Positions 11,427 to 43,025 of a stretch of DNA of 64,000 bases are shown piece by piece. Under the pieces are notes generated by a model. It did not search any database. It was not told where the DNA came from and saw only the letters and a program-made list of their open reading frames with translations. Within the stretch, counting starts at the first letter, position 1; the number at the start of each line of letters is the position of its first letter. This stretch comes from a bacterium. GTDB lineage: Bacteria > Desulfobacterota > Binatia > DP-6. Made by a program: the position numbers and the translations under genes. Location of the stretch: positions 59,257-123,256 of the forward strand of contig JAHCID010000003.1 in NCBI GenBank assembly GCA_026129405.1, written 5' to 3'.

Positions 11427-11441
11427 GCACGCCCGACCCCC

Positions 11442-19806: not shown

Positions 19807-19848
19807 GCCGAAGCGCACAGGACGGGGATCCTGTAGCGCGCCCCGGCC

Positions 19849-20088
19849 TCAGGGAAAGGGCTCGGTCTGCATCCTGGCGGCCAGTCGCCAGTGCGCGAGG
19901 AGTCGGGACGTGCTGCCCCGCGCAGAGACCTGAACGTGCTGGCCGCGGCACATCCCATACGCTCTCCACGTGACCTTGCCCGTCTGGACGAGGCGGACCG
20001 CGCACTCCTCGCCGTCTACGTCCACCAACCACTCCGTGCTCGGGTAGCTTCCCATCAGCATCTCCCCTCTCCACGTCCCGTTGACCAC
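19849..20088 (-). CDS. hypothetical small protein (79 aa) inside the island
   Basis: ORF with protein-like composition (MGSYPSTEWLVDVDGEECAVRLVQTGKVTWRAYG). No recognisable family. Confidence 0.25.
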   Translation of the reverse strand: MVNGTWRGEMLMGSYPSTEWLVDVDGEECAVRLVQTGKVTWRAYGMCRGQHVQVSARGSTSRLLAHWRLAARMQTEPFP

Positions 20089-20443
20089 GCGCTACCGGCG
20101 TTCGCGCTGGTCGTCCACCTCCGAGCGATCAACCGGCGCCAGGCGGACCCGCCAACGAAACCGACCTCACAGGAGGCCGACGCTGGACCAGTTCGGCGCT
20201 GGCCGGGGCGCACGCGATGCCCTGACCGGGCGGGTTGCGCTTCGACGCGATCCGCCGCCCCTTCTCCGGCCTGAGCTGTCCTGTCTTCGGCGTGTGCTGG
20301 AACCCGCAGGAGCCCCGGCGCGATGCCGCCCGCCGTGTCCGTCGCCTTCCTCGAAGATCGGCGGGTGCTCTACGCCCCGGAGCAAATGGAGGTCGCCCCT
20401 TGACGATCTGTCGATCGTGGCTAGTTTTAACTGCCGCCGCCGG

Positions 20444-20780
20444 ATGGGCGGATGCGCGGTAGGAGGATTGGCGGATGAGGGCCGTCAAGGGGGTCGTTCG
20501 GGCGCGCTGCTGGGGGGAAAGCTGAGCGTGGGGGTCGCGCTGCAGCTTATTCCTGATGTCGATCAGGCGCTTGAGCTTCTCTTCGCGCATAAGCTTGAGT
20601 TCATCCGCGAGTTCCTCCGCGATAGGGAACTGCCGGTCAGCGGTTCGAAAGAGGAACTGCGCGAGCGTCTTCGGCAGGCCGTGGTGGGCGACTACGTGTC
20701 TGTGGGAGAGGTGCTGCTGTACCTCGACCAGATCGAGGGCTGGGGCGATCAGCACCTCTACCTCTACACGGTGCCGGAGG
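20444..20780 (+). pseudogene. SAP-motif ORF interrupted by the IS3 insertion (N-terminal part; reading frame resumes after the IS at 22090)
   Basis: Low-GC coding-like segment with a SAP-like motif (LEFIREFLRDRELPVSGSKEELRERLRQAV). It is truncated exactly at the IS left end. Joining 20780 to 22090 gives ...YTVPEVPAIGDLPVLTRDEQVHLLADLDAHG... in frame. Confidence 0.35.
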
Positions 20781-20830
20781 TGAACCGTCCCGGCTTTCCC
20801 GGAGGCTCCAGATGTTGAGAGGATGGAGCC

Positions 20831-22059
<1,229 letters not shown>

Positions 22060-22303
22060 CCCAGCCTCCGGCGAACCCGGGACGGTTCACTGCCCGCGAT
22101 CGGGGACTTGCCGGTGCTGACCCGCGACGAGCAGGTGCATCTTCTTGCCGACCTCGATGCGCATGGGGCGTCACGCGCTACTGCCCGGACGCCGTCGAGG
22201 CCGTCCGCCAGGTCCGGCGCCGTCCATCATCGTTGACGAGGGACGGCATGATCCCGGAGCATCGCGTCGCGGGAATGGCCCCACCACAGACACGGAGAGG
22301 CGA

Positions 22304-23575
22304 ATGAAGAAGAAGCCGCCCAGCAAAAGCTGGGGCTACGCGTACCGCCCGAAGGGGCGCGGCGACGTGCCGACGAGCATCTACTGGCTGAAGTTCAAGC
22401 GCACCGGCGACAGCGAGCCCACGCGCGAACGGACGAACCCGCCGACCAGCGACGAGAGAGAAGCCCAGCGGCAGCTGCATGCGCGGCTCGGCGAGACCCA
22501 GCAGGCGCGCATGGAGCGTCGGCAGAAGGATCACTGCGAGGGCGTCACCATCAACGACATCCTCGACCTGTACGTCATCGACTGCCGGCGCCTCGGGCGT
22601 CCCATCCAGCAGGGCCGCATCGAGCCGTGGCGGCACGAACTGGGCAACGCGCTGACGACCGAGGTGCAGGCCATCGACCTCGATGACCTCGCCGATCTGT
22701 GGCAGCGCCGCGGGCTCGTCTGGGACGGCGGCAGCCGCACGCTCCGGGACGGCAGCATCATCACCTGGGACGCGCGGGACCCGGCGCGTATCCGGCCCAT
22801 CTCAGGGGCCTCCGTGAATCGTCTGATGGCGAGCCTCCGCCGCAGCTACACCCTCGGGCGGAGTAAGCTCGGACTCTCCTACGTGCCGGTCTTCCCGCGG
22901 CAGCCGGAGTTCGCTCGCGACACCGATCTCGCCGAGGACGAGTGCTTGGCCATCGTACAGCACTTCAAAGCGAAGCGCGGCGCCGACGTGAAGGCGGACG
23001 TGTTCCGCCTCGGCTACCTGCTCGGCATTCGCAAGGGGCAGCTGCGCCGCACCCTCAAACGCTACGTGATGACGAACGCGACGCCGTGGCGCATCGACTG
23101 GCCGGGGGAGACCACCAAGAACAGGAAGGACCATCGCGTGGCGCTCCACGGGGAAGCGCTCGAGATCGTGCAGCGCGCCTGGGCGCGGCGCCGGCCGGAT
23201 GTCGACGAGCTGTTCCACGTAGACGGGGCGCCACTCGGCCCCATGACCTCTGAGCTGAAGCGGACCTGCGAGGCCGTCGCCGTCGCCTACGGGCGCACCA
23301 ACGGCATCACGTTCCACTCGACCCGGCACGCGGCGGTGACGAACCTCCTCGCCGCGGGCATCGACGCTGCCGCCGCCATGAGCATCACGGGGCACGTCGA
23401 CCCTTCGACGTTCCGGCGCTACCACGAGCGCCGCGACAGCGTGCAGACGGCGGCGCAGGAGAAGATGGCGGCGTACCTCGCGCAGCAACGCGGCACGACA
23501 GTCGCCGTGACGCAGCGTGAGGGCACGACAGGGCACGACAACGAGCCCGATTCCGGTCACGCGCTCCGCGCGTAG
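22304..23575 (+). CDS. tyrosine-type site-specific integrase (phage integrase family)
   Basis: ATG at 22304 after ggagagg. C-terminal catalytic box (HSTRHAAVTNLLAAGID...ITGHVDPSTFRRYHE: R-H-R-Y). The gene ends 38 nt before the tRNA 3' end. Confidence 0.8.
   Translation: MKKKPPSKSWGYAYRPKGRGDVPTSIYWLKFKRTGDSEPTRERTNPPTSDEREAQRQLHARLGETQQARMERRQKDHCEGVTINDILDLYVIDCRRLGRPIQQGRIEPWRHELGNALTTEVQAIDLDDLADLWQRRGLVWDGGSRTLRDGSIITWDARDPARIRPISGASVNRLMASLRRSYTLGRSKLGLSYVPVFPRQPEFARDTDLAEDECLAIVQHFKAKRGADVKADVFRLGYLLGIRKGQLRRTLKRYVMTNATPWRIDWPGETTKNRKDHRVALHGEALEIVQRAWARRRPDVDELFHVDGAPLGPMTSELKRTCEAVAVAYGRTNGITFHSTRHAAVTNLLAAGIDAAAAMSITGHVDPSTFRRYHERRDSVQTAAQEKMAAYLAQQRGTTVAVTQREGTTGHDNEPDSGHALRA
23492..23540 (+). 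repeat. three copies of GGCACGACA within 49 bp (putative integrase arm-type sites), inside the integrase 3' end
   Basis: cggcacgaca ... gggcacgaca gggcacgaca. The same 9-mer pair occurs at 19787-19806. Confidence 0.4.
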
Positions 23576-23613
23576 GATTGAGCGTCCTGTGGAAGAACAC
23601 TCGGTTAGGGAAT

Positions 23614-23699
<86 letters not shown>

Positions 23700-27194: not shown

Positions 27195-28589
27195 TCATAT
27201 GCGCCGCACCCGCGCCGCCGGCTGCGTGCCGTCAACGAGGAAGAGCCGACGCGGCAGCTTGTGCGCCGCCAGCCCGCCGCGCGCGGCGGCGCGCAGCGTC
27301 TCGAGCGTCGGCGTCGCGCCCGCCACGGGAACCACCCAGGCCGCGACGGCCTGCCCCCATTCGGCGTCGGGCACCGCCGCGACGGTGACCTCCGCGACGC
27401 CGGCCACGCCCGCGAGCGCGGCTTCGACCTCCGCCGGTGCGACGTTCTCGCCGCCGGTGACGATGACGTCGTCGCGCCGGCCGAGGACGTGCAGGCGACC
27501 GTCGACGCCGAGGCGACCGAGATCCTGCGTGCGCAGCCAGCCGTCGGCCGCGGTCACGGGAAGGATCGCGCCGTCGGCGCCGAGACGCCCGGCGCTCACG
27601 GTCGGCCCTTGGACGTGGATCTCGCCGTCTTCGTCGGGCGCCGCCGGCGTGCCGTCGGCGCGGACGATGCGCACCCGTGTCGGCAGCAGCGGCAGACCTG
27701 CCGAGCCGTCGAGCGCGCGCGGATCGCCGGGCGCCGCGGTCGCGATCTGCGACGCCGCCTCGGTGCAGCCGTACGTCGGCGCCAGCGGCCAGCCGCGCCG
27801 CTCGCGCAGCAGCGCAGGCGGGGCACGGCGCCGCCAGATCAGCGCATCACCCAGCGACGGCGGCGGCGCCACCTCGCGCAGGCGGGCGAGCGCGGTCGGC
27901 ACCAGCGAGATGCGCGTCGGCGCATGCTCGCGGAAGCTGCGCGCGACGGTCTCGACGTCGAAGCCGTCGTGGAGGAGCACGGTGCTGCCGGCGAGGACGC
28001 TGCGCAGGACGACCGCGAGGCCGCCGACGTGCCAGAGAGGCAGGCAGGCGAGCCAGCGCTCGTCCGGCGTCATGCCGAGGCGGGCGGCGTTGCCGACCGC
28101 GCTCCACAGGTGGTTCGCGGCCGTGAGGACGATCGGCTTCGGGTTGCCACTCGTGCCCGACGTGAAGACGACGGTGTGCGGCCGGTCGAGGACCAGCGCC
28201 GGCGGCGTGGGCGCCGGCGGCGCGCCCGCAACGTCGGGTCAGGCGCGCCAGGCGGCGGGCGTGGCGCTCAGCCCGAGGGCGACGAGGACGCGTGCGCCGA
28301 CATCGCGCAGGCGCTGCGCCATCTCGGCGTCCGTCCAGCGCGGATCGCAGAGGACGAGCAGCGCACGTGCGCGCAGCCGCGGACCGCGGTGACCGACGCC
28401 ACCGCCGTTGCGCAGCGACCGCACCACCAGCACGCCGGGCGCAGCGCCGAGCGCGCGCAGGTGATGGGCGAGCCCCGCCGCCCGGCGCTCGAGCGCCGCG
28501 TAGTCGACCCGCGTGCCGTCGGCGAGGACGAGCGCGGCATGGTCGCCGCGGACGCGCGCCTGGGCGTGGAGCCAGTCGGGAACGGTCAC
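27195..28589 (-). pseudogene. menE: o-succinylbenzoate-CoA ligase (MenE)-like AMP-dependent ligase with in-frame TGA at 28239-28241
   Basis: N-terminal half (…LVLADGTRVDYAALERRAAGLAHHLRALGAAPGVLV...) and C-terminal half (VVFTSGTSGNPK...GMTPDERWLACLPLWHVGG...YGCTEAASQ...) are in the same frame. They are separated by a single TGA between ...TPAAWRA and PDVAGAPP. Confidence 0.6.
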
Positions 28590-29650
28590 GCGGCCTCGAC
28601 GACGCGCCAGCGTGCCAGCGCGCCGGCGTCGAGCTCGCCCAGGCCGGGCCCCGGCGGCAGCGCCATGGTGGGATGGGGACGGAGCGGCGTGCGCACGAGG
28701 TCGCCGGCGAGGAGCGCCGTGGTCGCGAGCCCGCAGGGCGGCGGCGCGTCGGCCAGGGCGGCGGCGAGATGGAGTGCTGCGGCGGTGGCGATCGAGCCGT
28801 CGAGCGCGGTCGTCACCGTGGTCGCGAGGCCGAGGCGGCGGGCCGCCGCCGCCGTCGGCAAGCGCGGGCCGGGCCGCCGACCTGCACGAAACTTCAGCAC
28901 GACGACGTCCGCGGCTTCTACGCCGCGGCTGGCGCCCTGCTGCCGGCCCGACCACCATCTCGTCGGCGCCGATGCGCACGCCGGCGCGTCGGCAGGCCGC
29001 GAGCGCGGCGTCGTCGCCCGGGGGCGCGGGCTGCTCGAGCTTGCGAGGCGGGCCGCCGCCAGGCGGGCGGCGGCTGCCGCCGCGCGCGCGCCCGGCCAGC
29101 GGCCGTTGGCGTCGCGCCTGCGCCGCGCCGAACGCGGCGGCGCGCACCGCGGCAGGGCGCGCCGCCGCGTCGGCAGTCCGGACCGACCTTCACCTTGGCG
29201 GCAGCGGGCGTGCGGCGGCGGCGGCGAGCGCGCCGAGCGTGGCGCCGTCGAGCAGCGCGCTCTGCCGCGACCATCGTCCGCCGCGCGCCATGCGACGCCA
29301 GCTCAACGACGCAACCGGCGACGGCGACCGGCAGATCGTGCTTTTATCATCAGGAGCCGACCGCAGCACCAGATCGTCTGCTCTGGGCGCGACACGGCCA
29401 GCTCGGCGAGGCGATCAGGCTGGCGCCGACGGGCGGGTCGCGGCGCCGCGCAGCCTGGCCTGCGGCCGAGCGCCGCCAGCGAGGTTCGCGCCTGGCGGTG
29501 CGGCCAGGCCTCGCCGGGGCCGACGCTGCCGTCGGCCGCGTGGAGGAAGACGACGACCCTCGCGCCGTGATCGGTCCGCCGCGGGTCGCCAGTGGCGTGC
29601 GCAGCGGCACGGCGTGCCGCCGCCAGCTCGAGCCGCCGGATCGTCAACGC
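28586..29650 (-). pseudogene. menC: o-succinylbenzoate synthase (MenC)-like, enolase superfamily, split across at least two frames
   Basis: C-terminal part ...LDGSIATAAALHLAAALAD... in one frame. The MenC hallmarks AAKVKVG and RRDANGRW lie upstream in two other frames. The stop overlaps the menE GTG. The upper boundary is approximate. Confidence 0.4.
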
Positions 29651-30540
29651 AGAGGCCACGGCGGAGGAGACCGAACGCGAGGTGCAGGCAGGCGGTCGCA
29701 GCGGCGCGGCGTTCAGGGTCGAGCAAATCGACGGCGCGCAGCACCGCGCGCAGCGGCGCCGGCGCCAGCGGGCCGCGAGCTTGGGCGAGCAGCAGCGCCA
29801 GCGTGCCGAGACCGGCGGCGAGCCCGGCCGGCGCTGCGAAGGCGAGGGCGAGGGCGGCGCCATAGAGCGCCCGCGCCGCCGGGCGGCCGAGGCGCACCGC
29901 CAGCGTACGCTTGCGCGCGCGCCGGTCGCCGTCGAGATCGCGCACGTTGTTGACGAGAAGGATCGCGGTGGCGAGGAGGCCGACGGGCAGCGAGGCGGCG
30001 AGCGCGAGCCTCGACTGCTGCACCCAGGCCGTGCCGATCACCGCCACCGGTCCGAAGAACGCGAAGACGAACGCCTCGCCGAGCCCATGATAGGCGAGCG
30101 GGAACGGTCCCGCCGTGTACGCCACCGCGGCGACGAGGGCGGCGGCGCCGGCCACCAGCGCCGGCGTGCCGAGTTGCAGCGCGAGCGGCAGCCCGATCGC
30201 CGCGGCGAGCGCGAGCACGCCGAGGCCGGCGGCAGGACGACCGCCAAACGCCAGCCGCCTGGGTGACGCGGGAGCGTGAACCAGGGCGGTCGAGGTCAAA
30301 TCGGCGCCGCGGCAGCGTCACTTCGATCGTTCACCAGGTTGATGCCGATCTGGAGCAGCAGCGCCGTCGCCAGGCAGGCGACGGCGAGCAGCGGATCGGC
30401 GCCACCGGCGCGGGCCGCCAGCGCCGTGCCGACGACGACGGGGACCACCGCCGCCGGCAGCGTGCGCGGGCGGATCGCCAGCAGCCAGACCTGGGCGGGC
30501 GGGCGCGCCGCCGGCGCCCCGCCTGCCGCGTCCGCGCCGG
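29650..30540 (-). pseudogene. menA: 1,4-dihydroxy-2-naphthoate polyprenyltransferase (MenA, UbiA family)-like with at least two frameshifts
   Basis: N-terminal motif LLLQIGINLVNDRSD lies in track ORF 30296..30751. The following DLDRPGS...G segment is in a second frame. The C-terminal motif [25 protein letters not shown] is in ORF 29415..30299. Boundaries are approximate. Confidence 0.45.
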
Positions 30541-31371
30541 TCACGGCAGGCGCGGGAAGCGCTCGAAGTCGGGCGCGCGCTTCTCGAGGAAGGCGTTGCG
30601 GCCCTCCTGCGCCTCCTCGGACATGTAGTAGAGCAGCGTCGCGTTGCCGGCGAGCTCCTGCACGCCGGCGAGCCCGTCGGTGTCGGCGTTGAACGCCGCC
30701 TTGAGGCAGCGCAGCGCGAGCGGGCTCAGCGCCAGCATCTCGCGGCACCATGCGACGGTCTCCGCCTCGAGCCGCGCCAGCGGCACGACGGTGTTGACGA
30801 GCCCCATCTCGAGCGCCTGCTGCGCGTCGTAGCGGCGACAGAGGAGCCAGATCTCGCGCGCCTTCTTGTGGCCGACGATGCGGGCGAGGAAGCCGGCGCC
30901 GAAGCCGCCGTCGAAGCTGCCCACGCGCGGACCCGTCTGCCCGAAGACGGCGTTGTCGGCCGCGATCGTGAGGTCGCAGACGACGTGCAGCACGTGGCCG
31001 CCGCCGACGGCGTAGCCGGCCACCATGGCGACCACCGGCTTCGGCAGCGTGCGGATCTGGCGCTGCAGGTCGAGGACGTTCAGGCGCGGCACGCCGGCGT
31101 CGTCGACGTAGCCGGCGTGGCCGCGGATGCGCTGGTCGCCGCCGGCACAGAACGCCTCCGTGCCCTGGCCGGTCAAGACGACGACACCGACCTTCGCGTC
31201 CTCGCGCGCGATGGTGAAGGCCTCCGCCAGCTCGTGCAGCGTGCGCGGCCGGAACGCGTTGCGGACCTCGGGACGGGCGATCGTGATCTTGGCGATGCCG
31301 CGCGCGTCGCCGTCGCCGCGCTCGTAGCGGATGTCTTCGAAGGGGCGGGCGGACGTCCAGCTGAACGACAT
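30541..31371 (-). CDS. menB: 1,4-dihydroxy-2-naphthoyl-CoA synthase (MenB)
   Basis: Intact 276-aa crotonase-fold protein ([18 protein letters not shown]...[22 protein letters not shown]...[19 protein letters not shown]...). RBS gaaggag. Confidence 0.85.
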
Positions 31372-31390
31372 GGAGGGGCTCCTTCTCGGG

Positions 31391-32185
31391 TCAGGCCGGA
31401 CGCGGCGCGCGCCGGCGCAGGAAATCGATGGTGGCCGCCGCGAAGGCGACGGGGTTCTCGAGATGGGTGGCGTGCCCGGCGTCGGGTACGACGACGGTCT
31501 CGGCGTCCGGCAGGCGCGCAGCCATGCGCGCGGCGAGGACACGGTAGGGCGGGTCGTCCGCGCCCACGACGAGCAGCGTCGGCGGGCGCAGGTGCGCGAG
31601 CTCGTCCCAGAGCGGCGCCTGCACGCCCGGCCCGAAGGCACGCAGCGCGGCGGCGAGGCCGGTGGCGCCGTTGCCGAGACGCACGGCACGCTCGCGCTCG
31701 CGGACGCCGCCCGGCAGGCGCGCCTGGGTCGCGAACAGGGGCTGCGCGGCCCAGGCGTCGACGAACGCGGGCAGGCCGTCGCGCAGCAGCGTCGCGGCGA
31801 GGGCGTCGTCGGCGACGGCGCGCAGGGTGCGGGCCGTCGCGTCGGCGATGCCCGGCGACGCCGACTCGAGGATGAGCCGCTCGACGCGCCCCGGTCGCGC
31901 GAGCGCGACGTGGAGCGCGGCGCGGCCGCCCATCGAGTAGCCGAGCCAGTGTGCGCGGGCGATGCCGAGGCGATCGAGGATGCCGACCAGCGCATCCGCC
32001 AGCTCGGGCAGGCGCATGCCGTCCGGCGGCGGTGAGTAGCGGTGGCCCGGCAGATCGACCGCGAGCACGCGGAAGTGCTCGGCGAGCACGGGCAGCAGCG
32101 GCAGCCAGGTGCCGGCGTTGCCGGTGAAGCCGTGCAGCAGGACCAGCGCCGGCCCGTGCCCGGCCGTCTCGACGTGCAGCCTCAT
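31391..32185 (-). CDS. menH: alpha/beta hydrolase, SHCHC synthase (MenH)-like
   Basis: [27 protein letters not shown]...[10 protein letters not shown]. It sits between menD and menB. Confidence 0.65.
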
Positions 32186-33956
32186 CCGGTCTCGAGGGCG
32201 TCGAGCGCCGCCGTCCAGGCGGCGCGGTGTGCGGCGAGGCTCGCGGCGCGGGCGATGCGCAGCGCCAGCACGGTCGTCTGCGGCGCGCCGAGCGCGGCGT
32301 GCAGCGCAGGCGCGAGCCCGGCCGGATCGTCGATGGGCACGAAGCGCGCGCCGTACATGGCGACGGCGGGTGCCAGGTCGAGACCGTGCGGGGTCACGAA
32401 GAGCTCCTCGTAGCGGCCGGCGGCGGCGGCGACGGGGAGGTGATCGAAGATGCCGCCGCCGTCGTTGTCGAGCACGACGAAGACGGCGCGCACGCCGTGC
32501 CGGCGCACCGCGAGGAGCCCGCCGAGGTCGTGGAGGAAGGTCAGATCGCCGCACAGGCCGACGGTCGGCACGCCGGCGGCCGCGGCGGCGCCGAGCACCG
32601 AGGAGACGAAGCCGTCGATGCCGTTGGCGCCGCGGTTCGCGAGCACGCGTACGGGCGGCGCGTCGGCGGGCCAGAACCAGTCGAGCGCGCGGATCGCCAG
32701 GCTGTTGCCGGCGTAGAGCTGCGCCTCGGCCGGCAGCGCCGCCGCCAGGGCCGCGACGGCATGGGCCTCGAAAGGCGGCGCGCCGGCGACGCTCCGAACG
32801 CTTGCTGCGCCCGGCGGCGGCGCCAGCGCGCCCTCGCGCGTTCCGGCAGGCGGGGATCGACATGGCGCCCGGGCAGCCGCGTCGCGAGCCCACCGACAGC
32901 TCGCCGCCAGAAGGCGCCGCGGAGGACGTGCGACACGACGCCGGCCGGCTCCGGCCACGCCCCGCTGGCGTCGAGCAGCAGGTGCGCGACGTCGTCGCGC
33001 TGCGCGAGCCAGGCGAGCGGCGGCGTCGGCGGCAGCCCGAGACGCACGATGGCGTCGACCTCGCCGGCGAGGCGGCGGTCACGGAGGATGACGTCGTGCG
33101 CGTCGACGACATGCGGTGCGAGCGGCGGACGGCGCAGGTTCGAGGCGGCCTCGGCGAGGACGGGCGCGCCGAGCGCGGCGGCGAGCGCGGCGACCGTGGC
33201 GGGCAGCGCCGGATCGGCGTCGTCGAGCGGTCAGCGACGTGACAGGCGGGCGGCGCGCCGGCGAGCGCCAGCGGCGGCGCCGTCGACGGCGCCAGGATCG
33301 GGCGGATCGGGCAGCGGCGCGATGCGCGTCCACGGGCCGTCACGCCGCGGCCGCGGGCGGCGCAGGGCGCGGCGGCGACAGGCGCGGCGAGCGGGCGCCG
33401 GGCGTCTGCGAGGAGCGGCTCCGTAGGGAGTTCGATCGGACGGTGCAGCCGGACGTCCCACCAGCGGCAACGACGCGGCGACAGTGCGAGCGTAAACCAC
33501 AAGATGGACCGCCGTCGCGTCGAGCGGGCCCAGCTCGAAGAACCAGCGCACGTGCGTGCCGAAGAGGCGTACCTGGTCGATCGTCTGCGGCGCGGCGGCG
33601 TCGCGCAGCTCGGGCGGACGGTCGGCGGTGCACACGACGAGCGGCACCCCGGCGTGGAACGCCTCGACCACCGCAGGCAGGAGATTCGCCGCGGCCGTGC
33701 CCGACGTGCAGCACACGAGCACCGGCCGGCGCGTCGCGCGGGCGAGCCCGAGCGCGAAGAAGCCCGCGGCGCGCTCGTCGACGTGCGACCAGACGCGCAG
33801 CCCGGGATGCGCGCCGCACGCCAGCGCCAGCGGCGCCGAGCGGCTGCCCGGCGCGACCACCGCATCGCGCACGCCGGCGCGGGCGAGCTCGTCGACCAGC
33901 ACGGTCGCGCCGGCGCAGCTCGGGTCGGCGTCGTCGACGTGGGCCGCGCTCGTCAT
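32182..33956 (-). pseudogene. menD: SEPHCHC synthase (MenD, ThDP-dependent)-like with internal stop and frameshifts
   Basis: N-terminal ThDP domain (CTSGTAAANLLPAVVEAFHAGVPLVVCTADRPPELRD) is in the 33231..33956 frame. The C-terminal TPP-binding domain (GDLTFLHDLGGL...VVLDNDGGGIF) is in the 32182..32958 frame. A stop at 33231 and garbage segments lie between them. Confidence 0.55.
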
Positions 33957-34229
33957 GGCTCCACGAGCGCCGCCAGCAGCGGGCGCAGCTTGAGGCGCGT
34001 CTCCTCGAGCTCGGCCTCGGGGTCGGAGCCGGCGACGATGCCCGCGCCGGCATAGAGCGTCGCCCGGCGGCCGCGGAGGAGCGCGCAGCGCAGCGGCACG
34101 ACCGTCTCGCCGTCGCCCGACGCGTCGAGCCAGCCGACGCCGCCGGCGTACCAGCCGCGCGCGAGCCGCTCGCGGACCGCGAAACCTCCGCGCGCGGCTT
34201 CGCGTCAGGCACGCCGCAGACGGCGGGCG

Positions 34230-35220
34230 TCAGGTGCAGCGCGGCCTGCCTCGAAACAGACCGCGGCCCGGCCGCAGCGTCCCGGAAAGCGGCGTGCGCA
34301 GGTGCTGCGCCTCGCCGGCGGCGACGACCATGGGCTCCGCAGGCCCGGCGAGGTCGCGGGTGAGGGGCGCCAGGCGCGCGCGGAGCGCGTCGACCACGAA
34401 GGCGTGCTCGGCCCGCTCCTTCGTGCTGGCGAGGAGCGCGGCCGGCGCGGCGCCGCGGGCGGCGGTGCCGGCGACGGCCGCGGTCTCGATGCGGCCCCGG
34501 TATACGCGCGCGAGGCGCTCGGGCGTCGCGCCGACGAACCACGTCCCGCCGTGGGCGACGCCGAACGTCGTACACTCGGGATGCGCGGCCCGCAGGCGCG
34601 CGAGGACGCGCAGTGGGACGAGGGGCGCGTCGGCGGTGACGCTGACGGCGCGGGCGAGGACGAGCTTCTCGAGCCGGCCGGCGGCGACGTCGACGAGGGT
34701 ACGGGCGACACGCCGTCGCCAGACGGCCGGCGCGGCGGCGGCGGCGATGCGCCACTGTCGCGCCGCCGTCGCCGGCGGCACCGGTGCGGCGAGGGCCGGC
34801 TGCGCCTCGGCGAGCAGGGCCCGGGCCATGTCCGGGCGTCTCGGCGAGGGCCACGAGGCGCGTCGTGCCGGCGCCGCACGGGGCGGCGCAACCGTGAGGG
34901 CGGCGGCGGGAAAGCCGCGCCAGGCGCCGGTGGGCGCCGCGTCGGCAGGCGTGGCCACCGACCACAGGGCGTCGTCGGGCAGCGGCGTCGCGCGGCGCCT
35001 GGGCGGCGAGGTGGCGGCGGCGCGGACCGGCCGCGGCTCCAACGCGACGGCGGCGCCGACGGCTTTGCGGCAGATCGCGGTCGGCGGCGGGCTGGGCGAA
35101 GAACATCCGCGGCGCGCGCGGGTGGGCTGCGAAGAGCCGCAGCGGGTCGACGTCGTCGGGCAGCGCGGCGCTGGCACCGGCGAGCGGCGGGGTGGCGGCG
35201 CTGCGGGCGGCGAGGCTCAC
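34230..35220 (-). pseudogene. menF: isochorismate synthase (MenF)-like, chorismate-binding domain, split across frames
   Basis: The chorismate-binding core (LEKLVLARAVSV...TTFGVAHGGTWFVGATPERL...) is in ORF 34230..35177. The N-terminal segment (DPLRLFAAHPRAPRMFFAQPAADR) and the HLTPAVCGVP motif are in a different frame (33340..35658). Confidence 0.45.
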
Positions 35221-35927
35221 GCGTCGGCCCGTACGGCGCGCAGCAGCTGCACCGCGCCGAAGCCGAGCGACTCCACGGTGACGCCGACGAAGCCCGCGTC
35301 GCGCACGAGATGGCGCAGCGTCGGGGGCGGCGGCAGGTACGCGGCGGAGCGCGGCAGGTAGGCGTAGGCCGCACGCTCGGCGAGCAGCGCGCCGATCCAC
35401 GGTACGAGACGGTCGAAGTAGAGACGGTGGACGAGGCGCGGCAGCGCGTGCGGCGGCGTCGCGACCTCGAGCACGACGAGCCGGCCGCCGGGGCGCAGGA
35501 CGCGGGCGGCCTCGGCGAGCACCGGCGGGATGGCGGCGAAGTTGCGCAGCGCGAAGCCGCAGGTGACCGCGGCGGCGACGCCCGTGGCGAGCGGGAGCCG
35601 CGCGGCGTCGCCGCGGACCAGCGCGGCGCACGCCGCGGGTGCGGGCGCGGGCCAGCATGCCAGCTGAAAAGTCGCGCCGACGCTGCGTGCGCCACTGACA
35701 GCAGCCCGAGCGCGGCGAAGGTCGCCGGTGCGCAGGCGACGTCGACCTGACGTCGCGCCGCGCCGCACCGCGGCCGCGGCCAGCGCGCGGCGCCGCCAGC
35801 CGCGGTCGAGGCCCCAGGTGAGGACGGCGTTCAGGCGATCGTAGCGCGGCGCGATGCGGTCGAACATCGCGCGCACGTGCGCGGCCTTGTGCTCCGGCGG
35901 CGGGAGCGGGTCGGCGCCTAGCGCCAC
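35217..35927 (-). CDS. UbiE/MenG-like class I SAM-dependent methyltransferase (demethylmenaquinone methyltransferase family), central region atypical
   Basis: N-terminal signature HVRAMFDRIAPRYDRLN and C-terminal DAARLPLATGVAAAVTCGFALRNF...VLRPGGRLVVLE. The glycine-rich motif-I region is poorly conserved. Confidence 0.5.
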   Translation of the reverse strand: MALGADPLPPPEHKAAHVRAMFDRIAPRYDRLNAVLTWGLDRGWRRRALAAAAVRRGATSGRRRLRTGDLRRARAAVSGARSVGATFQLACWPAPAPAACAALVRGDAARLPLATGVAAAVTCGFALRNFAAIPPVLAEAARVLRPGGRLVVLEVATPPHALPRLVHRLYFDRLVPWIGALLAERAAYAYLPRSAAYLPPPPTLRHLVRDAGFVGVTVESLGFGAVQLLRAVRADA

Positions 35928-36667
35928 GCCACCTCCAGGCGGCCTTCCATCGTCGCCCGCAGGGCGTGGCGCAGGCCGTGCGCGTCGCCGCGCGCTTCGA
36001 GGCGGGCGAACGCGCGGGCCACCAGGGTGCGGTGGAAGTGGTGGGCGACCAGCGCCGTCACCGCCGGCAGGAGGCGGCGGAAGGCGTCGACCACCTCGTC
36101 GGGGTCGCGCTCGGCGCCGTCGCGGCCGCGGCGGACGTGCTCGTCGAAGAGCTCGATGGCACGGTCGACCACCTCGCGCGCGTTCTCGGATTGGCGGATG
36201 GCGAGCCCGAGGAGCTCGGCGAGCGGCAAGCCTTCGTCGAGGAGGCGTAGCGCGTTGCGGGCCAGCTCGACGTCGACCTCCGAGTAGGGGGCGCGGCCGC
36301 CGGCGGATACGGGCTCGACGATGCCCGCGTTCTCGACCGCGGTGACGAGGGCCTCGGGCACGCCCGCTTCGGCGGCGAGCTCGCCGCGGGTCATGGTGCG
36401 CGTGCCGCGCTGCTCGCCGAGCGCCCGCCGCAGGGCGGCGGCGGTACGGGCGGCGCCGGGCTCGAGCATGCGGCGGATCACGGCGAGCGGGACGCCGTCG
36501 GCCTGGAGCTGCTTGATGCGCCGCAGGCGCTTCAGATGGCTCTCGCCGTAGACCGCGTGACGCCCGACGCGCCGGGGCGGCGGGAGGAGGCGCTGCGCCT
36601 GGTAGAAGCGGATGGTGTCGACGCTGATGCCCGCGGCCCGGGCCAGCGCCTCGACTCGGTAGTCCAC
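35918..36667 (-). CDS. MerR-family transcriptional regulator
   Basis: N-terminal HTH (MDYRVEALARAAGISVDTIRFYQAQRLLPPPRRVGRHAVY) and C-terminal effector domain. Confidence 0.75.
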   Translation of the reverse strand: MDYRVEALARAAGISVDTIRFYQAQRLLPPPRRVGRHAVYGESHLKRLRRIKQLQADGVPLAVIRRMLEPGAARTAAALRRALGEQRGTRTMTRGELAAEAGVPEALVTAVENAGIVEPVSAGGRAPYSEVDVELARNALRLLDEGLPLAELLGLAIRQSENAREVVDRAIELFDEHVRRGRDGAERDPDEVVDAFRRLLPAVTALVAHHFHRTLVARAFARLEARGDAHGLRHALRATMEGRLEVAWR

Positions 36668-36755
36668 GTGACGACTCTATGAGTGTTCACTCATGACGAG
36701 TCAAACGCGCTGCCGGGGCGACGCCCGGCGGGGGCCGTGCTATGGTCGGCGACGC

Positions 36756-38252
36756 ATGTCGCGCCTCCTCGTCCTCGGCGCGCTCGGGCTCGCGGTAGGC
36801 GTCGGCTGCGCGCTGCTGCCTGAGCGCTACGCGATGAACGTTCCGGTCGCGAACCTCCTGTGGGGCGGCGGCATCGAGGCGCCCAGCGAGGCGGTGGTGC
36901 GCCGCCGCCTGCAGGTCCCGCCCGGGTTCTCGGTCGCGCTGTGGGCCGACGAGGTGCCGAACGCGCGCCTGCTCCGCGTCACCGAGACGGGCGATCTCCT
37001 CGTCAGCCAGCCGCGCCGCGGCCAGGTGACGCTGCTCGAGCGCGACGCCGACGGCGACGGCCGCGCCGACGGGCGCCGCGTCGTGCTCGAGGGTCTCGAT
37101 CGCCCGCACGGCCTCGCGCTCCACGACGGCTGGCTCTGGGTCGCCGAGACGGGCGCCGTCGGCCGCATTCGCTTCGACGCCGCGACCCGCGCCACGAGCG
37201 GCGCGTTCGAGCGCGTCGTCACCGGCCTGCCGGCGGGCGGCAACCACTGGACGCGCACCATCGGCGTCGGCCCGGACGGCTGGCTCTACGTCTCGATCGG
37301 ATCGTCCTGCAACGTGTGCGTCGAGCAGGATCCGCGGCGCGCGGCGATCGTGCGCTACCGGCTCGACGGCAGCGGCGAGGAGATCTTCGCATCCGGCCTG
37401 CGCAACGCGGTCGGCTTCGACTGGCACCCGCAGACGCGGCAGCTGTGGGCGACCGACAATGGCCGCGACCTCCTCGGCGACGACTTCCCGCCCTGCGAGC
37501 TGAACCAGGTGCGCGCCGGCGGCTTCTACGGCTGGCCCTACGCCAACGGCGCCCGCGTGCCGGATCCGGACTACGGCCGGGGCGAGGAGGCGCGCATCGC
37601 GGCGTCGATTCCGCCCGCGCACGACTTCCGCGCCCACAACGCGCCGCTCGGCATGACCTTCGTGCGCGGCGACGGGCTGCCCGCGGCGTATCGTCACGCC
37701 GCGCTCGCCGCGCTGCACGGCTCGTGGAACCGCACGCGCAAGGACGGCTACAAGGTCGTCTCGCTGCACTGGCAGGACGACGGCAGCATCGCCGAGCGCG
37801 ACTTCCTGTGGGGCTTCCTCGCCGACGAGGACGTCATCGGCCGCCCGGTCGACGTCGCCGAGGGAGCGGACGGCGCGCTCTACGTGTCGGACGACTATGC
37901 CGGCGCGATCTGGCGGGTCGCGTACGGGGACGCGGCCGCGGCGCCGGCGCCGGCTGCGCCGGCCGCGGCGCCGCCGCCCGACGCGGGTCTCGAGGCGCTG
38001 CCCGCGGCGGAGCGGACGGCGCTGGCGGAGCGCGGGACGACCCTCTTCCGTGACCTCGGCTGCGCCACTTGTCACCCGGCGGCGGGCGCGAGGGGGACGG
38101 CGCTGATCCCGCTCGCGCACCTGCGCGCGCGCTGGACGGTCGACCGGCTGGTCGAGTTCTTCGCCGCGCCGACGCCGCCGATGCCCGCCGTCGATCGCCC
38201 GGCCGCCGAGCGGCGCGCGCTCGCGGTGCACGTGCTGACGCAGTACCCGTGA
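36756..38252 (+). CDS. PQQ-dependent soluble sugar (glucose/sorbosone) dehydrogenase fused to C-terminal mono-heme cytochrome c domain
   Basis: Signal peptide MSRLLVLGALGLAVGVGCA. Beta-propeller GSDH segments (LLVSQPRRGQVTLL..., GPDGWLYVSIGSSCNVC..., WATDNGRD). C-terminal CATCH heme-binding motif. Confidence 0.75.
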   Translation: MSRLLVLGALGLAVGVGCALLPERYAMNVPVANLLWGGGIEAPSEAVVRRRLQVPPGFSVALWADEVPNARLLRVTETGDLLVSQPRRGQVTLLERDADGDGRADGRRVVLEGLDRPHGLALHDGWLWVAETGAVGRIRFDAATRATSGAFERVVTGLPAGGNHWTRTIGVGPDGWLYVSIGSSCNVCVEQDPRRAAIVRYRLDGSGEEIFASGLRNAVGFDWHPQTRQLWATDNGRDLLGDDFPPCELNQVRAGGFYGWPYANGARVPDPDYGRGEEARIAASIPPAHDFRAHNAPLGMTFVRGDGLPAAYRHAALAALHGSWNRTRKDGYKVVSLHWQDDGSIAERDFLWGFLADEDVIGRPVDVAEGADGALYVSDDYAGAIWRVAYGDAAAAPAPAAPAAAPPPDAGLEALPAAERTALAERGTTLFRDLGCATCHPAAGARGTALIPLAHLRARWTVDRLVEFFAAPTPPMPAVDRPAAERRALAVHVLTQYP

Positions 38253-40321
38253 GAGCGCTCGCGCGCGCCGCGCTGGCGGCCGTGCTGCTCCTCGGCGCGG
38301 CGACGGCCGTCGCGCAGCCCGGCGAGGGGGCGGCGCTCCCCGAGCTCGTGGTCGAGGCCGATCGCCTGCCGCCCGGCACCGCGCCCGGCGCGAGCGTCCG
38401 GGTCCTCGACCGCGCGACGCTCGACGCCGCGCCGGTGCTCACGGTCGACGATGCGCTCCTCCCGGTGCCCGGCTTCCAGCTCTTCCGGCGCCAGTCGAGC
38501 CTGGTGGCGAATCCGACCTCGCAGGGCGTGTCGCTGCGCGGGCTCGGGGCGAGCGGCACCAGCCGCACGCTGGTCCTCCTCGACGGCGTCCCGCTGAACG
38601 ACCCGTTCGGGGGCTGGGTGCCGTGGAACCGCGTGTCGCTCGAGGGCCTCGAGCGCATCGACGTGATCCGCGGCCCGGCGGCGGCGCCGTGGGGCAACCT
38701 CGCCATGGGCGGCGTCGTCTCGCTCGTCACCGCCAGGCCCGAGTCGCGTGCGGGCGGCGCGGTGGTCGAGGGCGGCACGCACGACACGGTGCGCGCCGAC
38801 GGCTGGGCGACGGATCGGCAGGGGAGCGTCGGGCTCGGCGTCGGCGGCGGCTGGCTCGCGACCGGCGGATGGCCGATCGTGCGGGCGGATCAGCGCGGCG
38901 CCATCGACGTACCGGCCGGCTCCGCCCGCGGCGTGCTCGACACGCGCGCCGAGTGGACGCCGCCCGAGGGCGCGCGGTTCCACGCCCGCGCCAACCTGTT
39001 CGACGAGACGCGCGACAACGGCACCCCGCTCACCGGCAACGACAGCCGCGCCGCCGACGTCGCGGCGGGCGTGCGCTGGCGCGCCTTCGGCGGCGACGGG
39101 GCGGTGCAGGCGTTCGGCAAGCTCGGCCGTTTCGCGAGCACGTTCTCGAGCCAGGGCGCGGATCGCCGCAGCGAGCAGCCGGCGTCGGACCAGTTCGACG
39201 TGCCGAGCAGCGCCGCCGGCGCCGCCGCCACGTGGTGGGGCGCCGCCGGGCCGCACGCGATCGGCGCCGGCACCGACGTCTACTGGATCGACGGCGCCAG
39301 CAACGAGGACGGCCGCTTCGTCGACGGCCGCTTCACCCGCCGGCGCGCGGCCGGCAGCGAGGAGCTGTTCGCCGGCGCCTGGGCGCAGGGCACGGCGGCC
39401 CTGCACCCGCGTCTCGCGGCGACGCTCGGCCTGCGACTCGACGGCTGGCGGACGGCGAACGGCTTTCGCCGCGAGCGCGACCTCACCGCCGGCGCGGCGC
39501 TGCGCGACGATGCGCTGCCGTCGCGCCACGCCGTGCTCGCGAGCCCGAGCCTCCTCGTGCGCTGGACGCTCGACGACGGCTGGGCGCTGCGCGGCGGCGC
39601 GTCGCGCGGCTGGCGCGCGCCGACGGTGAACGAGCTGGTGCGCGGCTTCCGCGTGCGCAACGACGTCACCGAGCCGAACCCGGACCTCGACCCCGAGGTG
39701 CTGACCGGCGGCGAGGTCGGCGTCGAGCGGCTCGGCGCGCGCTGGAGCGGCGTGGTGACGGCGTACTGGAGCGTCGTCGACGACCCGATCGCGAACGTCA
39801 CCGTCGGCCGTGGCCCCGGCGACGTCGTCCCGTGCGGCTTCGTGCCGGCGGGCGGCGTCTGCCGCCAGCGCATGAACCTCGGCCGCAGCCGCGTACGCGG
39901 CGTCGAGGCCGAGGGCGAGGTCGCGCTGTGGCGCGAGCTGCACCTCACCCTGGGCGGCCTCTACGCCGACGCCGTGATCGTCGACGGCGGTCCGGCGCCG
40001 GGGCTCGACGGCAGGCGGCCGGCCCAGGTGCCGCAGCTCGAGGGCAGCACGGGGCTGCGCTGGGCGCCGGCGCGCGGCCTGCAGGCGGCGGTGCAGGTGC
40101 GCTACGGCGGCCTCCAGTACGAGGACGACGGCAACACGTTGCCGCTCGGCGGCTACGCCACCATGGACGTGCGGCTCGGCTGGCGCTTCGGGCGCTTCGA
40201 GGCCTTCGTCGCGGTCGACAACGCGCTCGACCGCACGTATCTCGTCGGCCGCTCGGCCGACGGCCTCGAGACCATCGGCATGCCGCTGCTCGCACATGGC
40301 GGGCTGCGGGCGCGGTTCTGA
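38249..40321 (+). CDS. TonB-dependent outer-membrane receptor (about 690 aa, BtuB-like size)
   Basis: GTG overlaps the dehydrogenase stop. Signal peptide, TonB box PELVVEADR, plug domain (VDVIRGPAAAPWGNLAMGGVVSLVT), C-terminal barrel ending ...GGLRARF. Confidence 0.75.
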   Translation: MRALARAALAAVLLLGAATAVAQPGEGAALPELVVEADRLPPGTAPGASVRVLDRATLDAAPVLTVDDALLPVPGFQLFRRQSSLVANPTSQGVSLRGLGASGTSRTLVLLDGVPLNDPFGGWVPWNRVSLEGLERIDVIRGPAAAPWGNLAMGGVVSLVTARPESRAGGAVVEGGTHDTVRADGWATDRQGSVGLGVGGGWLATGGWPIVRADQRGAIDVPAGSARGVLDTRAEWTPPEGARFHARANLFDETRDNGTPLTGNDSRAADVAAGVRWRAFGGDGAVQAFGKLGRFASTFSSQGADRRSEQPASDQFDVPSSAAGAAATWWGAAGPHAIGAGTDVYWIDGASNEDGRFVDGRFTRRRAAGSEELFAGAWAQGTAALHPRLAATLGLRLDGWRTANGFRRERDLTAGAALRDDALPSRHAVLASPSLLVRWTLDDGWALRGGASRGWRAPTVNELVRGFRVRNDVTEPNPDLDPEVLTGGEVGVERLGARWSGVVTAYWSVVDDPIANVTVGRGPGDVVPCGFVPAGGVCRQRMNLGRSRVRGVEAEGEVALWRELHLTLGGLYADAVIVDGGPAPGLDGRRPAQVPQLEGSTGLRWAPARGLQAAVQVRYGGLQYEDDGNTLPLGGYATMDVRLGWRFGRFEAFVAVDNALDRTYLVGRSADGLETIGMPLLAHGGLRARF

Positions 40322-40385
40322 GGTCGTCTGGCGCGGCGGGCGTGGTTTCGCCGCCCGTGGCGGCTCTGCTACATCCGGGCGGATC

Positions 40386-43025
40386 ATGTCCACGGTCCGC
40401 GCCATCGATCCCGCGACGCTTCCGAAGCACTTCGACGCCGCCGAGGCGGAGCGACGCTGGCACGCGGCGTGGGATCGCCTGCGCACCTACGCCTGGGATC
40501 CGGCCCGGGGCCGCGACGAAACCTTCGTCGTCGACACGCCGCCGCCCACCGTCTCGGGCTCGCTGCACGTCGGTCACGTCTTCAGCTACACGCACGCCGA
40601 CTGCCTGGCGCGCTACCAGCGCATGCGCGGCCGCAACGTCTTCTATCCGATGGGGTGGGACGACAACGGCCTGCCCACGGAGCGGCGGGTGCAGAACTTC
40701 TACAACATCCGCTGCGACCCGAGCGTGCCGTCGCGCGGCGTGCCCGACGTGCCGCCGCCGGGGAACGCGAAGGAGGCGCCGGCGCTGGTCTCGCGGCCCG
40801 ACTTCATCGGCCATTGCCTCGTCCTCACGCGCGAGGACGAGGAGGCGTTCAAGGCGCTGTGGACGCGGCTCGGGCTGTCGGTCGACTGGTCGCTCGAATA
40901 CTCGACCATCGATGCGCACTGCCGGCGCACGGCCCAGCTCTCCTTCCGCGACCTCTGGGACAAGGGCCACGTCTACAGCCTCGAAGCGCCAACCATGTGG
41001 GACGTCGACTTCCAGACCGCGGTGGCGCAGGCCGAGGTGGAAGACCGGCCGACACGCGGCGCCTTCCACCACGTGGCCTTCGGCGTCGACGGCAGCTCCG
41101 AGCACTTCGTCATCGCCACCACGCGCCCCGAGCTGCTGCCCGCCTGCGTCGGCGTGACCGCGCACCCGGACGACGCGCGCTACGAGCACCTCTTCGGCAA
41201 GCACGCGCTCACCCCGATCTTCCGCGTGCCGGTGCCGATCTTCCCGAGCGAGCTCGCGGATCCCGAGAAGGGCACCGGCATCCTCATGGTGTGCACCTTC
41301 GGCGACGCCACCGACGTGCAGTGGTGGCGCGAGCAGCGGCTCCAGCTGCGCCAGATCATCGGCCGCAACGGCCGTCTCGTGCCGGTCGAGTTCGGCAGCG
41401 AGGGCTGGGAGAGCCGCGACCCGGAGCGCGCCAACGCCGCCTACGCCGAGATCACCGGTAAGGCGATGAACGGGGCGCGCCAGAAGATCGTAGAGCAGCT
41501 GCGCGACGCCGCCAACGCCGCGACGCCGGGCGGTGGGCCGCCGCTGCGCGAGGAGCCGAAGCCGCTCGAGCACAGCGTCAAGTACTACGAGAAGGGCGAC
41601 CGCCCGCTCGAGTTCGTGACCACGCGCCAGTGGTTCGTGCGTCTCCTGCGCCAGAAGGACGCGCTGATCGCCAAGGGCGACGTCGTGCGCTGGCATCCCG
41701 ACTTCATGCGGCTGCGCTTCCGCAACTGGACGGAGAACCTGAACGCCGACTGGTGCGTCAGCCGCCAGCGCTTCTTCGGCGTGCCGATCCCGGTCTGGTA
41801 TCCGCTCGACGCGGACGGGCGCCCGCAGCACGACGCGGCCATCTGCGCCGACGCCGCGCAGATGCCCTGCGACCCGACCACCGACGTCCCGGCGGGCTAC
41901 AGCGAAGCGCAGCGGGGCGCACCCGGCGGCTTCGTCGCCGACCCGGACGTCTTCGACACCTGGTTCACCAGCTCGCTGACGCCGCAGATCAGCTCGCACT
42001 GGCCGGCGGATGCGGCGCGCCACGCGCAGCTCTTTCCCGCCGACATCCGCCCGCAGAGCCACGAGATCATCCGCACGTGGGCGTTCTACACCATCGCCAA
42101 GGCGCTCCTGCACGAGGACACCATCCCGTGGCACCACGTGGTCGTGTCGGGATGGATCCTCGATCCGGACCGCAAGAAGATGTCGAAGTCGAAGGGCAAC
42201 GTGGTGACGCCGATGCACCTCCTCGACGACTACGGCGCCGACGGCGTGCGCTACTGGGCGGCGTCGGCGCGCCTCGGCACCGACACCGCGTTCGACGACA
42301 AGGTGTTCAAGGTCGGCAAGCGCCTGGTGACGAAGCTCTTCAACGCCGGCAAGTTCGTGCTCGGGCAGGCCGGCCCGGTGGCGCCGATCACGGCGCCGCT
42401 CGACCGCGCCTTCGTCCACCGGCTCGCACGCCTGGTGGAGCAGGTGACCGCGCACTACGAGCGCTTCGACTACGCCCACGCGCTGCAGGACACCGAGGCG
42501 TTCTTCTGGCGCGACTTCACCGACACCTACCTCGAGCTGGTGAAGGGCCGCGCGCGCGACGCCGGCGCCGAGCAGGGGTCGGCGCTGGCGGCGCTGCGGC
42601 TCGGGCTGTCGGTGCTGCTCCGCCTGTTCGCGCCGGCGCTGCCGTACATCACCGAGGAAGTGTGGTCGTGGGCCTTCGCCGAGGACCACGGCGCGCCGAC
42701 GATCCACCGTGCGGGCTGGCCGTCCGCGGCGGAGCTGGCGGGCGTCGCGTCGTCGGAGGACCCGGCCTGCTTCGACGCCGCCGTCGCCTGCTACGCGGCG
42801 ATCAACAAGGCGAAGTCGGAGGGCGGCGTGTCGACCGGCCGTGCGGTCACGCAGATGACGCTCGCCGTCGACGCGGCGACGCGCACGCGCCTCGAGCCCG
42901 TGCTGGGCGACGTGCTCGCGGCGGCCCGCGTCGCCGGCCACCTCCTGGAGACCGCGCCCGACCTCGCGGACGGCGAGTTCCGCGTTGCGGACGCGGCGTT
43001 CGCACCCGCTCCGGCCGACGCATGA
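40386..43025 (+). CDS. valS: valine--tRNA ligase
   Basis: 880 aa. Class I motifs PPTVSGSLHVGHV (HIGH) and KMSKSKGN, with a ValRS-type editing domain and anticodon-binding regions. Confidence 0.9.
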   Translation: MSTVRAIDPATLPKHFDAAEAERRWHAAWDRLRTYAWDPARGRDETFVVDTPPPTVSGSLHVGHVFSYTHADCLARYQRMRGRNVFYPMGWDDNGLPTERRVQNFYNIRCDPSVPSRGVPDVPPPGNAKEAPALVSRPDFIGHCLVLTREDEEAFKALWTRLGLSVDWSLEYSTIDAHCRRTAQLSFRDLWDKGHVYSLEAPTMWDVDFQTAVAQAEVEDRPTRGAFHHVAFGVDGSSEHFVIATTRPELLPACVGVTAHPDDARYEHLFGKHALTPIFRVPVPIFPSELADPEKGTGILMVCTFGDATDVQWWREQRLQLRQIIGRNGRLVPVEFGSEGWESRDPERANAAYAEITGKAMNGARQKIVEQLRDAANAATPGGGPPLREEPKPLEHSVKYYEKGDRPLEFVTTRQWFVRLLRQKDALIAKGDVVRWHPDFMRLRFRNWTENLNADWCVSRQRFFGVPIPVWYPLDADGRPQHDAAICADAAQMPCDPTTDVPAGYSEAQRGAPGGFVADPDVFDTWFTSSLTPQISSHWPADAARHAQLFPADIRPQSHEIIRTWAFYTIAKALLHEDTIPWHHVVVSGWILDPDRKKMSKSKGNVVTPMHLLDDYGADGVRYWAASARLGTDTAFDDKVFKVGKRLVTKLFNAGKFVLGQAGPVAPITAPLDRAFVHRLARLVEQVTAHYERFDYAHALQDTEAFFWRDFTDTYLELVKGRARDAGAEQGSALAALRLGLSVLLRLFAPALPYITEEVWSWAFAEDHGAPTIHRAGWPSAAELAGVASSEDPACFDAAVACYAAINKAKSEGGVSTGRAVTQMTLAVDAATRTRLEPVLGDVLAAARVAGHLLETAPDLADGEFRVADAAFAPAPADA

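Follow-up and report, generated by a model that had tools for sequence, protein, structure and literature searches.

Does the menaquinone gene cluster of an uncultured high-GC bacterium of the class Binatia still encode a working pathway, or has it decayed in place? The question is raised by contig JAHCID010000003.1 of assembly GCA_026129405.1, of which we analysed positions 59,257 to 123,256, a stretch of 64,000 nucleotides (nt) hereafter called the window, with about 75% GC across its length. On its minus strand, merR, ubiE, menF, menD, menH, menB, menA, menC and menE follow each other from 36667 to 27195, and a small conserved open reading frame (ORF) comes next. Six of these genes (ubiE/menG, menF, menD, menA, menC and menE) are disrupted, and merR, menH and menB are intact. 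The reading that we favour, with a probability of roughly 0.6, is a genuine and fairly recent pseudogenisation of the six genes.

Lesions in six genes of the cluster

Proteins of relatives were aligned to the window with a purpose-built frameshift-aware protein-to-DNA aligner, at frameshift penalties of 14, 20, 26 and 32. A total of 39, 21, 15 and 10 frameshifts were called at these penalties, respectively, plus one to three in-frame stops (two or three at penalties 20 to 32). All fall within the six genes, while merR, menH, menB and the downstream ORF have zero frameshifts at every penalty. Most lesions are indels of 1-2 nt, with insertions and deletions at about 16:23. The genes are given below from 5' to 3' of the cluster, with identities and, where not stated otherwise, lesion counts obtained at penalty 14 against two relatives (L161 and L172).

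35918..36667, minus strand: merR, regulator of the MerR family (Rv1828-like), first gene of the cluster; intact (MCW5891441.1), 93% identical to MerR of L161, 0 lesions
35217..35927, minus strand: ubiE/menG, demethylmenaquinone methyltransferase; open ORF of 236 aa with four frameshifts in two compensated patches (35749-35729 and 35673-35630), 80% identity
33953..35222, minus strand: menF, isochorismate synthase; broken, with up to 10 frameshifts called (10 at penalty 14), of which eight fall within the first 260 nt at the N-terminus; those at about 35081, 34257 and 34204 are robust; 69% identity
32182..33956, minus strand: menD, 2-succinyl-5-enolpyruvyl-6-hydroxy-3-cyclohexene-1-carboxylate (SEPHCHC) synthase; broken, one to seven frameshifts (33436-33230 and 32910-32814; seven at penalty 14) and a stop at 33233..33231, 75% identity
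31391..32185, minus strand: menH, 2-succinyl-6-hydroxy-2,4-cyclohexadiene-1-carboxylate (SHCHC) synthase, an alpha/beta hydrolase; intact (MCW5891435.1), 81% identical to L172, 0 lesions
30541..31371, minus strand: menB, 1,4-dihydroxy-2-naphthoyl-CoA (DHNA-CoA) synthase; intact (MCW5891434.1), 96% identical to L172, 0 lesions
29655..30487, minus strand: menA, DHNA polyprenyltransferase of the UbiA superfamily; broken, frameshift at 30311 and a weak compensated pair at 29725/29705 (three frameshifts), 72% identity
28586..29647, minus strand: menC, o-succinylbenzoate (OSB) synthase of the enolase superfamily; the most damaged gene, 3-12 frameshifts (29619-28861; 12 at penalty 14), net in frame with several segments out, 61% identity
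27195..28589, minus strand: menE, OSB-CoA ligase of the ANL superfamily; interrupted in frame by a TGA (28241..28239), with weak compensated shifts at 28402, 28383 and 28358 and a scrambled LIGGAA segment, 73% identity
26745..27167, minus strand: small conserved ORF 3' of menE; intact, 76% identical to the ORF that follows menE in L172 (orf98), 0 lesions; it marks the edge of the damaged zone

The first-pass annotation of the window, made from the sequence alone, had reported broken frames in menE, menA, menD, menF and menC, and each of these descriptions holds. In menF, the core with its motifs (34230..35177) is read in another frame than the C-terminus (33953..34099), the N-terminus is scrambled, and no single ORF covers the gene. 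No single ORF covers menD either: frame -3 carries its N-terminal thiamine diphosphate (ThDP) domain (ORF 33231..33956) and frame -2 its C-terminal thiamine pyrophosphate (TPP) domain (ORF 32182..32958), with the internal stop that had been noticed. In menA, the NDxxDxxxGxD motif is interrupted by the shift at 30311, and a stop closes the N-terminal frame shortly beyond the motif; NDRSDAA, the segment that starts with RGAD and the conserved RVTQAAG segment are found in three different frames, and the two Asp motifs (NDxxDxxxGxD and NNxRDxxxD) do not share one. The KVKVG and DANGRW pieces of menC are out of frame with their neighbours. As for menE, the TGA that separates its two halves stands 20 codons 5' of HTVVFTSGTSGNPKP and upstream of the A3 motif (TSGTSGxPK).

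Two kinds of damage had been missed. First, the patches in ubiE shift S-adenosylmethionine (SAM) motif I and the segment next to it out of frame despite the open ORF: the in-frame reading is SGRRRLRTGDL, and VDVACATGDL, which fits the expected VDVACxTGD, appears only after a -1/+1 shift. Three references at differing distances (L002, L161 and L176) agree on the positions of the shifts in ubiE and in the N-terminus of menF. Second, besides the three weak shifts at 28402-28358, menE has lost the catalytic lysine of A10 (PRTxxGK) at its C-terminus; at A10 the reading is DGTQPAARVRR, with no lysine in any frame, and no uninterrupted ORF carries both A3 and A10.

The lesions often form frame-restoring pairs 10-60 nt apart. 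In several lesion patches (window 35750-28358), T-runs are found where the relatives have G or C (CGACTTTTCAG, GATTTGCTC, CCGATTTGACC, GTCTGTTTCG and GAAGTTTCG).

Once their frames are corrected, MenF and MenD pass the cut-offs of TIGR00543 (248.6 vs. 224.75) and TIGR00173 (343.5 vs. 244.2), respectively, and MenA passes its family model. Frame-corrected MenC still fails the NCBIfam cut-offs (TIGR01927, 59.2 vs. 130.55), frame-corrected MenE stays under that of TIGR01923 (262.1 vs. 330.15), and the UbiE ORF as it stands is below the UbiE/MenG threshold (TIGR01934, 132.5 vs. 158.35). These scores bear on the idea that the six genes are still functional, the out-of-frame patches being tolerated as compensated shifts or read through by recoding. 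Such tolerance would fit the many shifts in compensating pairs and the fact that ubiE, menC and menE are net in frame. However, menD, menF and menA end in wrong-frame stops, SAM motif I is lost to the patch in ubiE, menE is interrupted by a TGA and is without the catalytic A10 lysine, and MenC, MenE and UbiE miss their thresholds. Moreover, TGA closes ordinary genes in the window, for example the N-terminal frame of menA. Judged from the reading frames, persistent function is largely refuted and can hardly be maintained.

In the public annotation (locus tag KIT14), the fragments are listed as separate proteins: the N-terminal fragment of MenD as 'hypothetical protein KIT14_12930', the C-terminal fragment of MenE as 'AMP-binding protein' and the scrambled UbiE as 'class I SAM-dependent methyltransferase'. 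With fragments annotated as ordinary proteins, tools that score pathway completeness could misjudge the organism in either direction.

Intact orthologues and controls

The gene order in the window is the same as in the intact cluster of L002, a metagenome-assembled genome (MAG) of the Binatia. L161, found via the protein collection, carries merR-ubiE-menF-menD together with flanking genes for GSDH, a TonB receptor, an aminoacyl-tRNA synthetase (aaRS) and QRPTase, and L172, from the same Joint Genome Institute metagenome, carries menH-menB-menA-menC-menE-orf98. L174 and L175/L176 are further relatives with the cluster, and an outgroup clade (L163-L171) has an intact cluster without menH. In all the relatives compared (L002, L161, L172, L174, L175/L176 and the L163 clade), every cluster gene is a single intact ORF. 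The first-pass annotation had suggested looking for the same lesions in the clusters of relatives; since the syntenic orthologues are intact, the lesions are derived in the lineage of the window. The genome scan with MenB returned at least 600 matches, beyond which closer genomes may exist; the nearest relatives identified have 82-84% DNA identity over the shared region. In the metagenome scan with MenH, all matches were at 56% identity or below.

Some relatives have peculiarities of their own. L162 was rejected as the closest MenB relative: it is distant and of 66% GC, and its MenB (785-1939) reaches 384 aa owing to an internal tandem duplication of about 108 residues, which inflated its score above the self-hit. 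In L002, menH and menB share one open frame with no stop between them (9203-10819); either the two proteins are fused or this MAG contains an error. In the L163-L171 clade (e.g. L163, 5432-14227), merR-ubiE-menF-menD-menB-menA-menC-menE is directly followed by a resistance-nodulation-division (RND) efflux operon; a similar RND operon (MFP-AcrB-OEP) is found in the window at 10263-16090.

Pairs of intact orthologues with 70-74% GC served as a control for the aligner, and gave 0-3 frameshifts per gene at penalty 14 and 0-1 at penalty 22. The lower lesion counts are therefore safe and the upper ones somewhat inflated. Gap counting in plain DNA alignments against L002 or L161 was dropped as a lesion measure, because intact controls (merR vs. 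L002, menH, GSDH) also gave many gaps whose length is not a multiple of three, i.e. alignment noise. On the side of merR, five syntenic genes (window 35921-43867, 7.8 kb) show 0 lesions against L161, at identities of 91% (QRPTase), 91% (aaRS), 84% (TonB receptor), 84% (GSDH) and 93% (MerR). Furthermore, a hidden Markov model of the periodicity of GC at the third codon position (GC3) finds the reading frames fragmented only at 26.7-35.9 kb; in the rest of the window they end at stop codons. For about 30 other genes of the window, a single ORF contains the Pfam domain at full length; among them are the sulfatase and glycosyltransferase genes at 52-58 kb, whose GC content equals that of the men genes. 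This clean remainder excludes an error process acting over the whole window, and the lesion pattern exceeds chance or method noise.

Signs of probable relaxed selection in the disrupted genes

We then compared the lineage of the window with that of an intact relative in a relative-rate test, using the L163 clade as outgroup. The six broken genes have 236 residues unique to the window against 143 unique to the relative, and the excess persists (159 vs. 103) when 8 residues on either side of each frameshift are excluded. For merR, menH and menB together, the counts are 22 and 22 (12 and 12 for menH). Likewise, nonsynonymous and synonymous codon changes (N:S) in the broken genes are 91:129 in the window and 58:151 in the relative (Fisher p = 0.003), while those of merR and menB are 7:44 and 7:53, the window figures being 4:28 for merR and 3:16 for menB. 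menH and menB thus show no acceleration and no lesion. Accelerated replacement and a raised N:S restricted to the broken genes are what decay predicts: purifying selection would be relaxed in the disrupted genes only, which is a mark of genuine pseudogenes.

Decay or consensus artefact

The same lesions could also have arisen outside the organism. In a local assembly or consensus artefact, the genes would be intact in the bacterium, and the indels, with some of the substitutions, would have appeared at places with poor support for the consensus. Long-read sequence left unpolished, low short-read coverage at very high GC, or the collapse of co-existing strain variants could be the cause. Several observations point this way and weigh against decay. 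The lesions, mostly 1-2 nt indels, are clustered in patches of 20-250 nt, with a median gap of 46.5 nt where 96 nt are expected (P = 0.0006 at penalty 14; P = 0.04 at penalty 20). As a rule, indels arise about ten times less often than substitutions (PMC6054270). Here, about 95 excess nucleotide substitutions in the lineage of the window stand against 21-39 frameshifting indels; the ratio of 0.2-0.4 is two to four times the natural expectation of about 0.1. Clustering and a ratio of this size are met more typically with consensus problems than under neutral decay. In the shift lists at penalty 14, the frame is restored in 15 of 21 opportunities, part of which may be aligner bias; that ubiE, menC and menE end up net in frame is not predicted by neutral decay either. 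The raised N:S is also expected from random substitution errors, which could mimic relaxation. A GC-to-AT bias was considered as a mark of unselected mutation and rejected, the lineages of the window and of the relative being alike, with no extra bias in the former. In addition, the damaged genes are the most GC-rich of the window (0.765-0.803), and most lesions are in protein segments of lower conservation, in which strain variants would differ most. Consensus errors in long reads are typically indels, and the length of the contig (665 kb) suggests that long reads were used. Finally, no second, independent assembly of this species turned up, and the 90% cluster of MenB holds no other sequence from it.

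However, the position of the damage speaks against an artefact. It starts exactly at ubiE, ends exactly at menE and skips menH-menB, a clean block of 1.6 kb, although menH is on a par with its neighbours in GC content (0.777) and in variability (81% identity). At the lesion density of these neighbours, the chance of zero lesions in menH and menB is P = 9e-5, 0.004 or 0.049 for 40, 24 or 13 events, respectively. About 55 kb of the same contig, including a region of 0.78-0.87 GC at 52-55 kb, are without an uncompensated frameshift. Moreover, one frameshift lies inside a conserved motif of menA, and the TGA of menE is clean. A purely GC-driven artefact was set aside on similar grounds, although not decisively: the lesion sites average 0.80 GC (range 0.69-0.86), and both menH and the richer region at 52-55 kb are clean.

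An artefact is therefore possible but less likely; the region would then be a useful sign that a long contig, clean elsewhere, has a quality problem at this place. The first-pass annotation had read the pattern as decay of the classical pathway. Its reading is upheld by the exact confinement of the lesions to menaquinone genes and by the lineage-specific acceleration found there only, and is weakened by the clustering and the indel excess, which a consensus problem fits better. Taking both sides together, we infer that the lesions probably exist in the organism and not just in its assembly, and that selection on menaquinone synthesis has been relaxed.

Retention of menH and menB

Under decay, the starting point would be an ancestral, syntenic classical menaquinone operon. 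Six of its genes would have gained many 1-2 nt indels and at least one nonsense codon, and would have lost catalytic motifs. With such lesions in six genes, the pathway encoded here for de novo synthesis of menaquinone is unable to function, and if they are real, the locus would be without capacity for isochorismate, SEPHCHC, OSB, OSB-CoA, demethylmenaquinone and menaquinone. Menaquinone would then not come from this locus, and another quinone, another copy of the genes or supply by the community would be needed, which bears on the respiration and on the cultivation needs of this bacterium. The first-pass annotation had thought of a switch to another quinone route; no mqn or ubi genes of such a route were found within the 64-kb window.

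The merR gene and the adjacent pair menH-menB would have stayed intact under purifying selection. As first reported, both menH and menB are uninterrupted, and they are full length against every reference. MenH has the GYSMGG nucleophile elbow and the C-terminal His (GHATHLE), and passes the equivalog cut-off of TIGR03695 by a small margin (218.5 vs. 208.55). MenB is well above the equivalog cut-offs of NF005637 (491 vs. 380) and TIGR01929 (442.6 vs. 342.7, profile positions 1-259 of 259). It has its fold in common with BadI (2-ketocyclohexanecarboxyl-CoA hydrolase), another member of the crotonase family, which is its fourth-best NCBIfam match at 287 bits; the window protein is far under the BadI cut-off (467.6) but above both MenB cut-offs, and by these scores it is a true MenB.

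Expression signals are also kept. A strong ribosome-binding site, GAAGGAG, is read 7 nt upstream of menB, from which menB could be translated on its own, and a promoter candidate precedes merR:

36674..36704, minus strand: candidate MerR-type promoter just upstream of merR, read from the sequence; TTGACT, a 19-nt spacer with the palindrome CATGAGTG/CACTCAT, and TAGAGT

This layout is typical of promoters regulated by the MerR family, and the GTG start of merR comes only 6 nt after the -10 element. The element would function as a MerR-type promoter; a consensus sigma-70 scan, which covers spacers of 16-18 nt, gave no match at this place, and inside the cluster neither a sigma-70 consensus promoter nor a convincing terminator was found. 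With the promoter candidate and the ribosome-binding site of menB both kept, the intact genes could still be expressed, merR and menH-menB presumably being transcribed from the former.

The pair was presumably retained for a reason. A second role of the enzymes, copies of the other genes at another place in the genome that make those here redundant, or mere chance may account for it. In the case of redundancy, the decay would be real, and a second men set elsewhere, duplicated or acquired, would have taken over, with menH and menB kept as single copies at the old locus. This would explain why exactly these two genes stay under selection. In addition, the related clades differ in cluster content: the cluster of the L163 clade lacks menH, so men genes can be spread over several loci. 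However, no second copy was seen within the window, the best 120 matches of a MenD search held no further protein from the same contig, and we regard redundancy as improbable.

It has also been suggested that MenB and MenH can have other roles, for which they may have been kept. The stronger proposal, that menH and menB form a selected two-enzyme module after the loss of all other classical steps, including the final prenylation and methylation, seems unlikely to us. If true, it would imply that a bona fide MenB/MenH pair does work unrelated to menaquinone, or that a pathway intermediate supplied by neighbours is salvaged. Under decay of the six genes, which we continue to favour, the retention of the pair would be a small puzzle that touches on enzyme moonlighting or intermediate cross-feeding.

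Comparison with known systems

In gene content and order, the cluster of the window matches the classical OSB menaquinone operon (menFDHBCE with menA and ubiE/menG in Bacillus subtilis) and the merR-ubiE-menFDHBACE arrangement of its relatives (L161 with L172, and L002). Unlike these operons, it has 6 of 8 enzyme genes frame-disrupted or shortened, and the encoded pathway is incomplete. Menadione-auxotrophic small-colony variants are another case of an incomplete menaquinone pathway. Cases in which a biosynthetic operon decays are known, and partial men sets are known in reduced genomes (PMC3971599); the sole mildly unusual element here is the kept menH-menB pair.

Among bacteria under relaxed selection, pseudogenes with multiple indels are documented, for example in Candidatus Burkholderia leaf-nodule symbionts, with 696 indels in 151 pseudogenes and an insertion:deletion ratio of 0.76 (PMC6054270). 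As in the window, there are several small indels per gene, insertions are somewhat rarer than deletions, and the neighbouring genes are intact. Unlike in those symbionts, the decay in the window is limited to one operon in an otherwise intact 64 kb, and its lesions are clustered and numerous relative to the substitutions. A flavobacterial endosymbiont that keeps only ispB, menA and menB (PMC3971599) also has a partial men set including menB after loss of the rest. It keeps, however, the quinone-forming step (menA), whereas in the window menA is broken together with ubiE, and the retained pair, menH and menB, has no substrate supply from the locus. A literature search on Binatia and menaquinone found no paper.

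Other features of the window

At lower window coordinates than the damaged zone, a region of lower GC (down to 0.68-0.70 within 19390-23697) carries the following elements:

20831..22059, plus strand: insertion sequence of the IS3 family, with orfA (20831-21151) and orfB (21148-22059)
22145..23575, plus strand: tyrosine integrase
23613..23697, minus strand: tRNA-Leu(CAG), adjoined by the integrase

The first part of this region (19390-20853) is without a GC3 coding signal, and the whole (19390-23697) is probably a mobile element integrated at the tRNA gene. The overlap of orfA and orfB lies at an ALIL pseudoknot (Rfam, 21109-21225, 107 bits), a genuine programmed -1 frameshift site, unlike the lesions of the men genes.

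On the other side of the cluster, 49354-58685 (minus strand) holds three tandem sulfatase paralogues, all ending in LGYVE, then glycosyltransferase genes, three of the GT2 and one of the GT4 family. Another sulfatase, the fourth, is encoded at 5939-7480.

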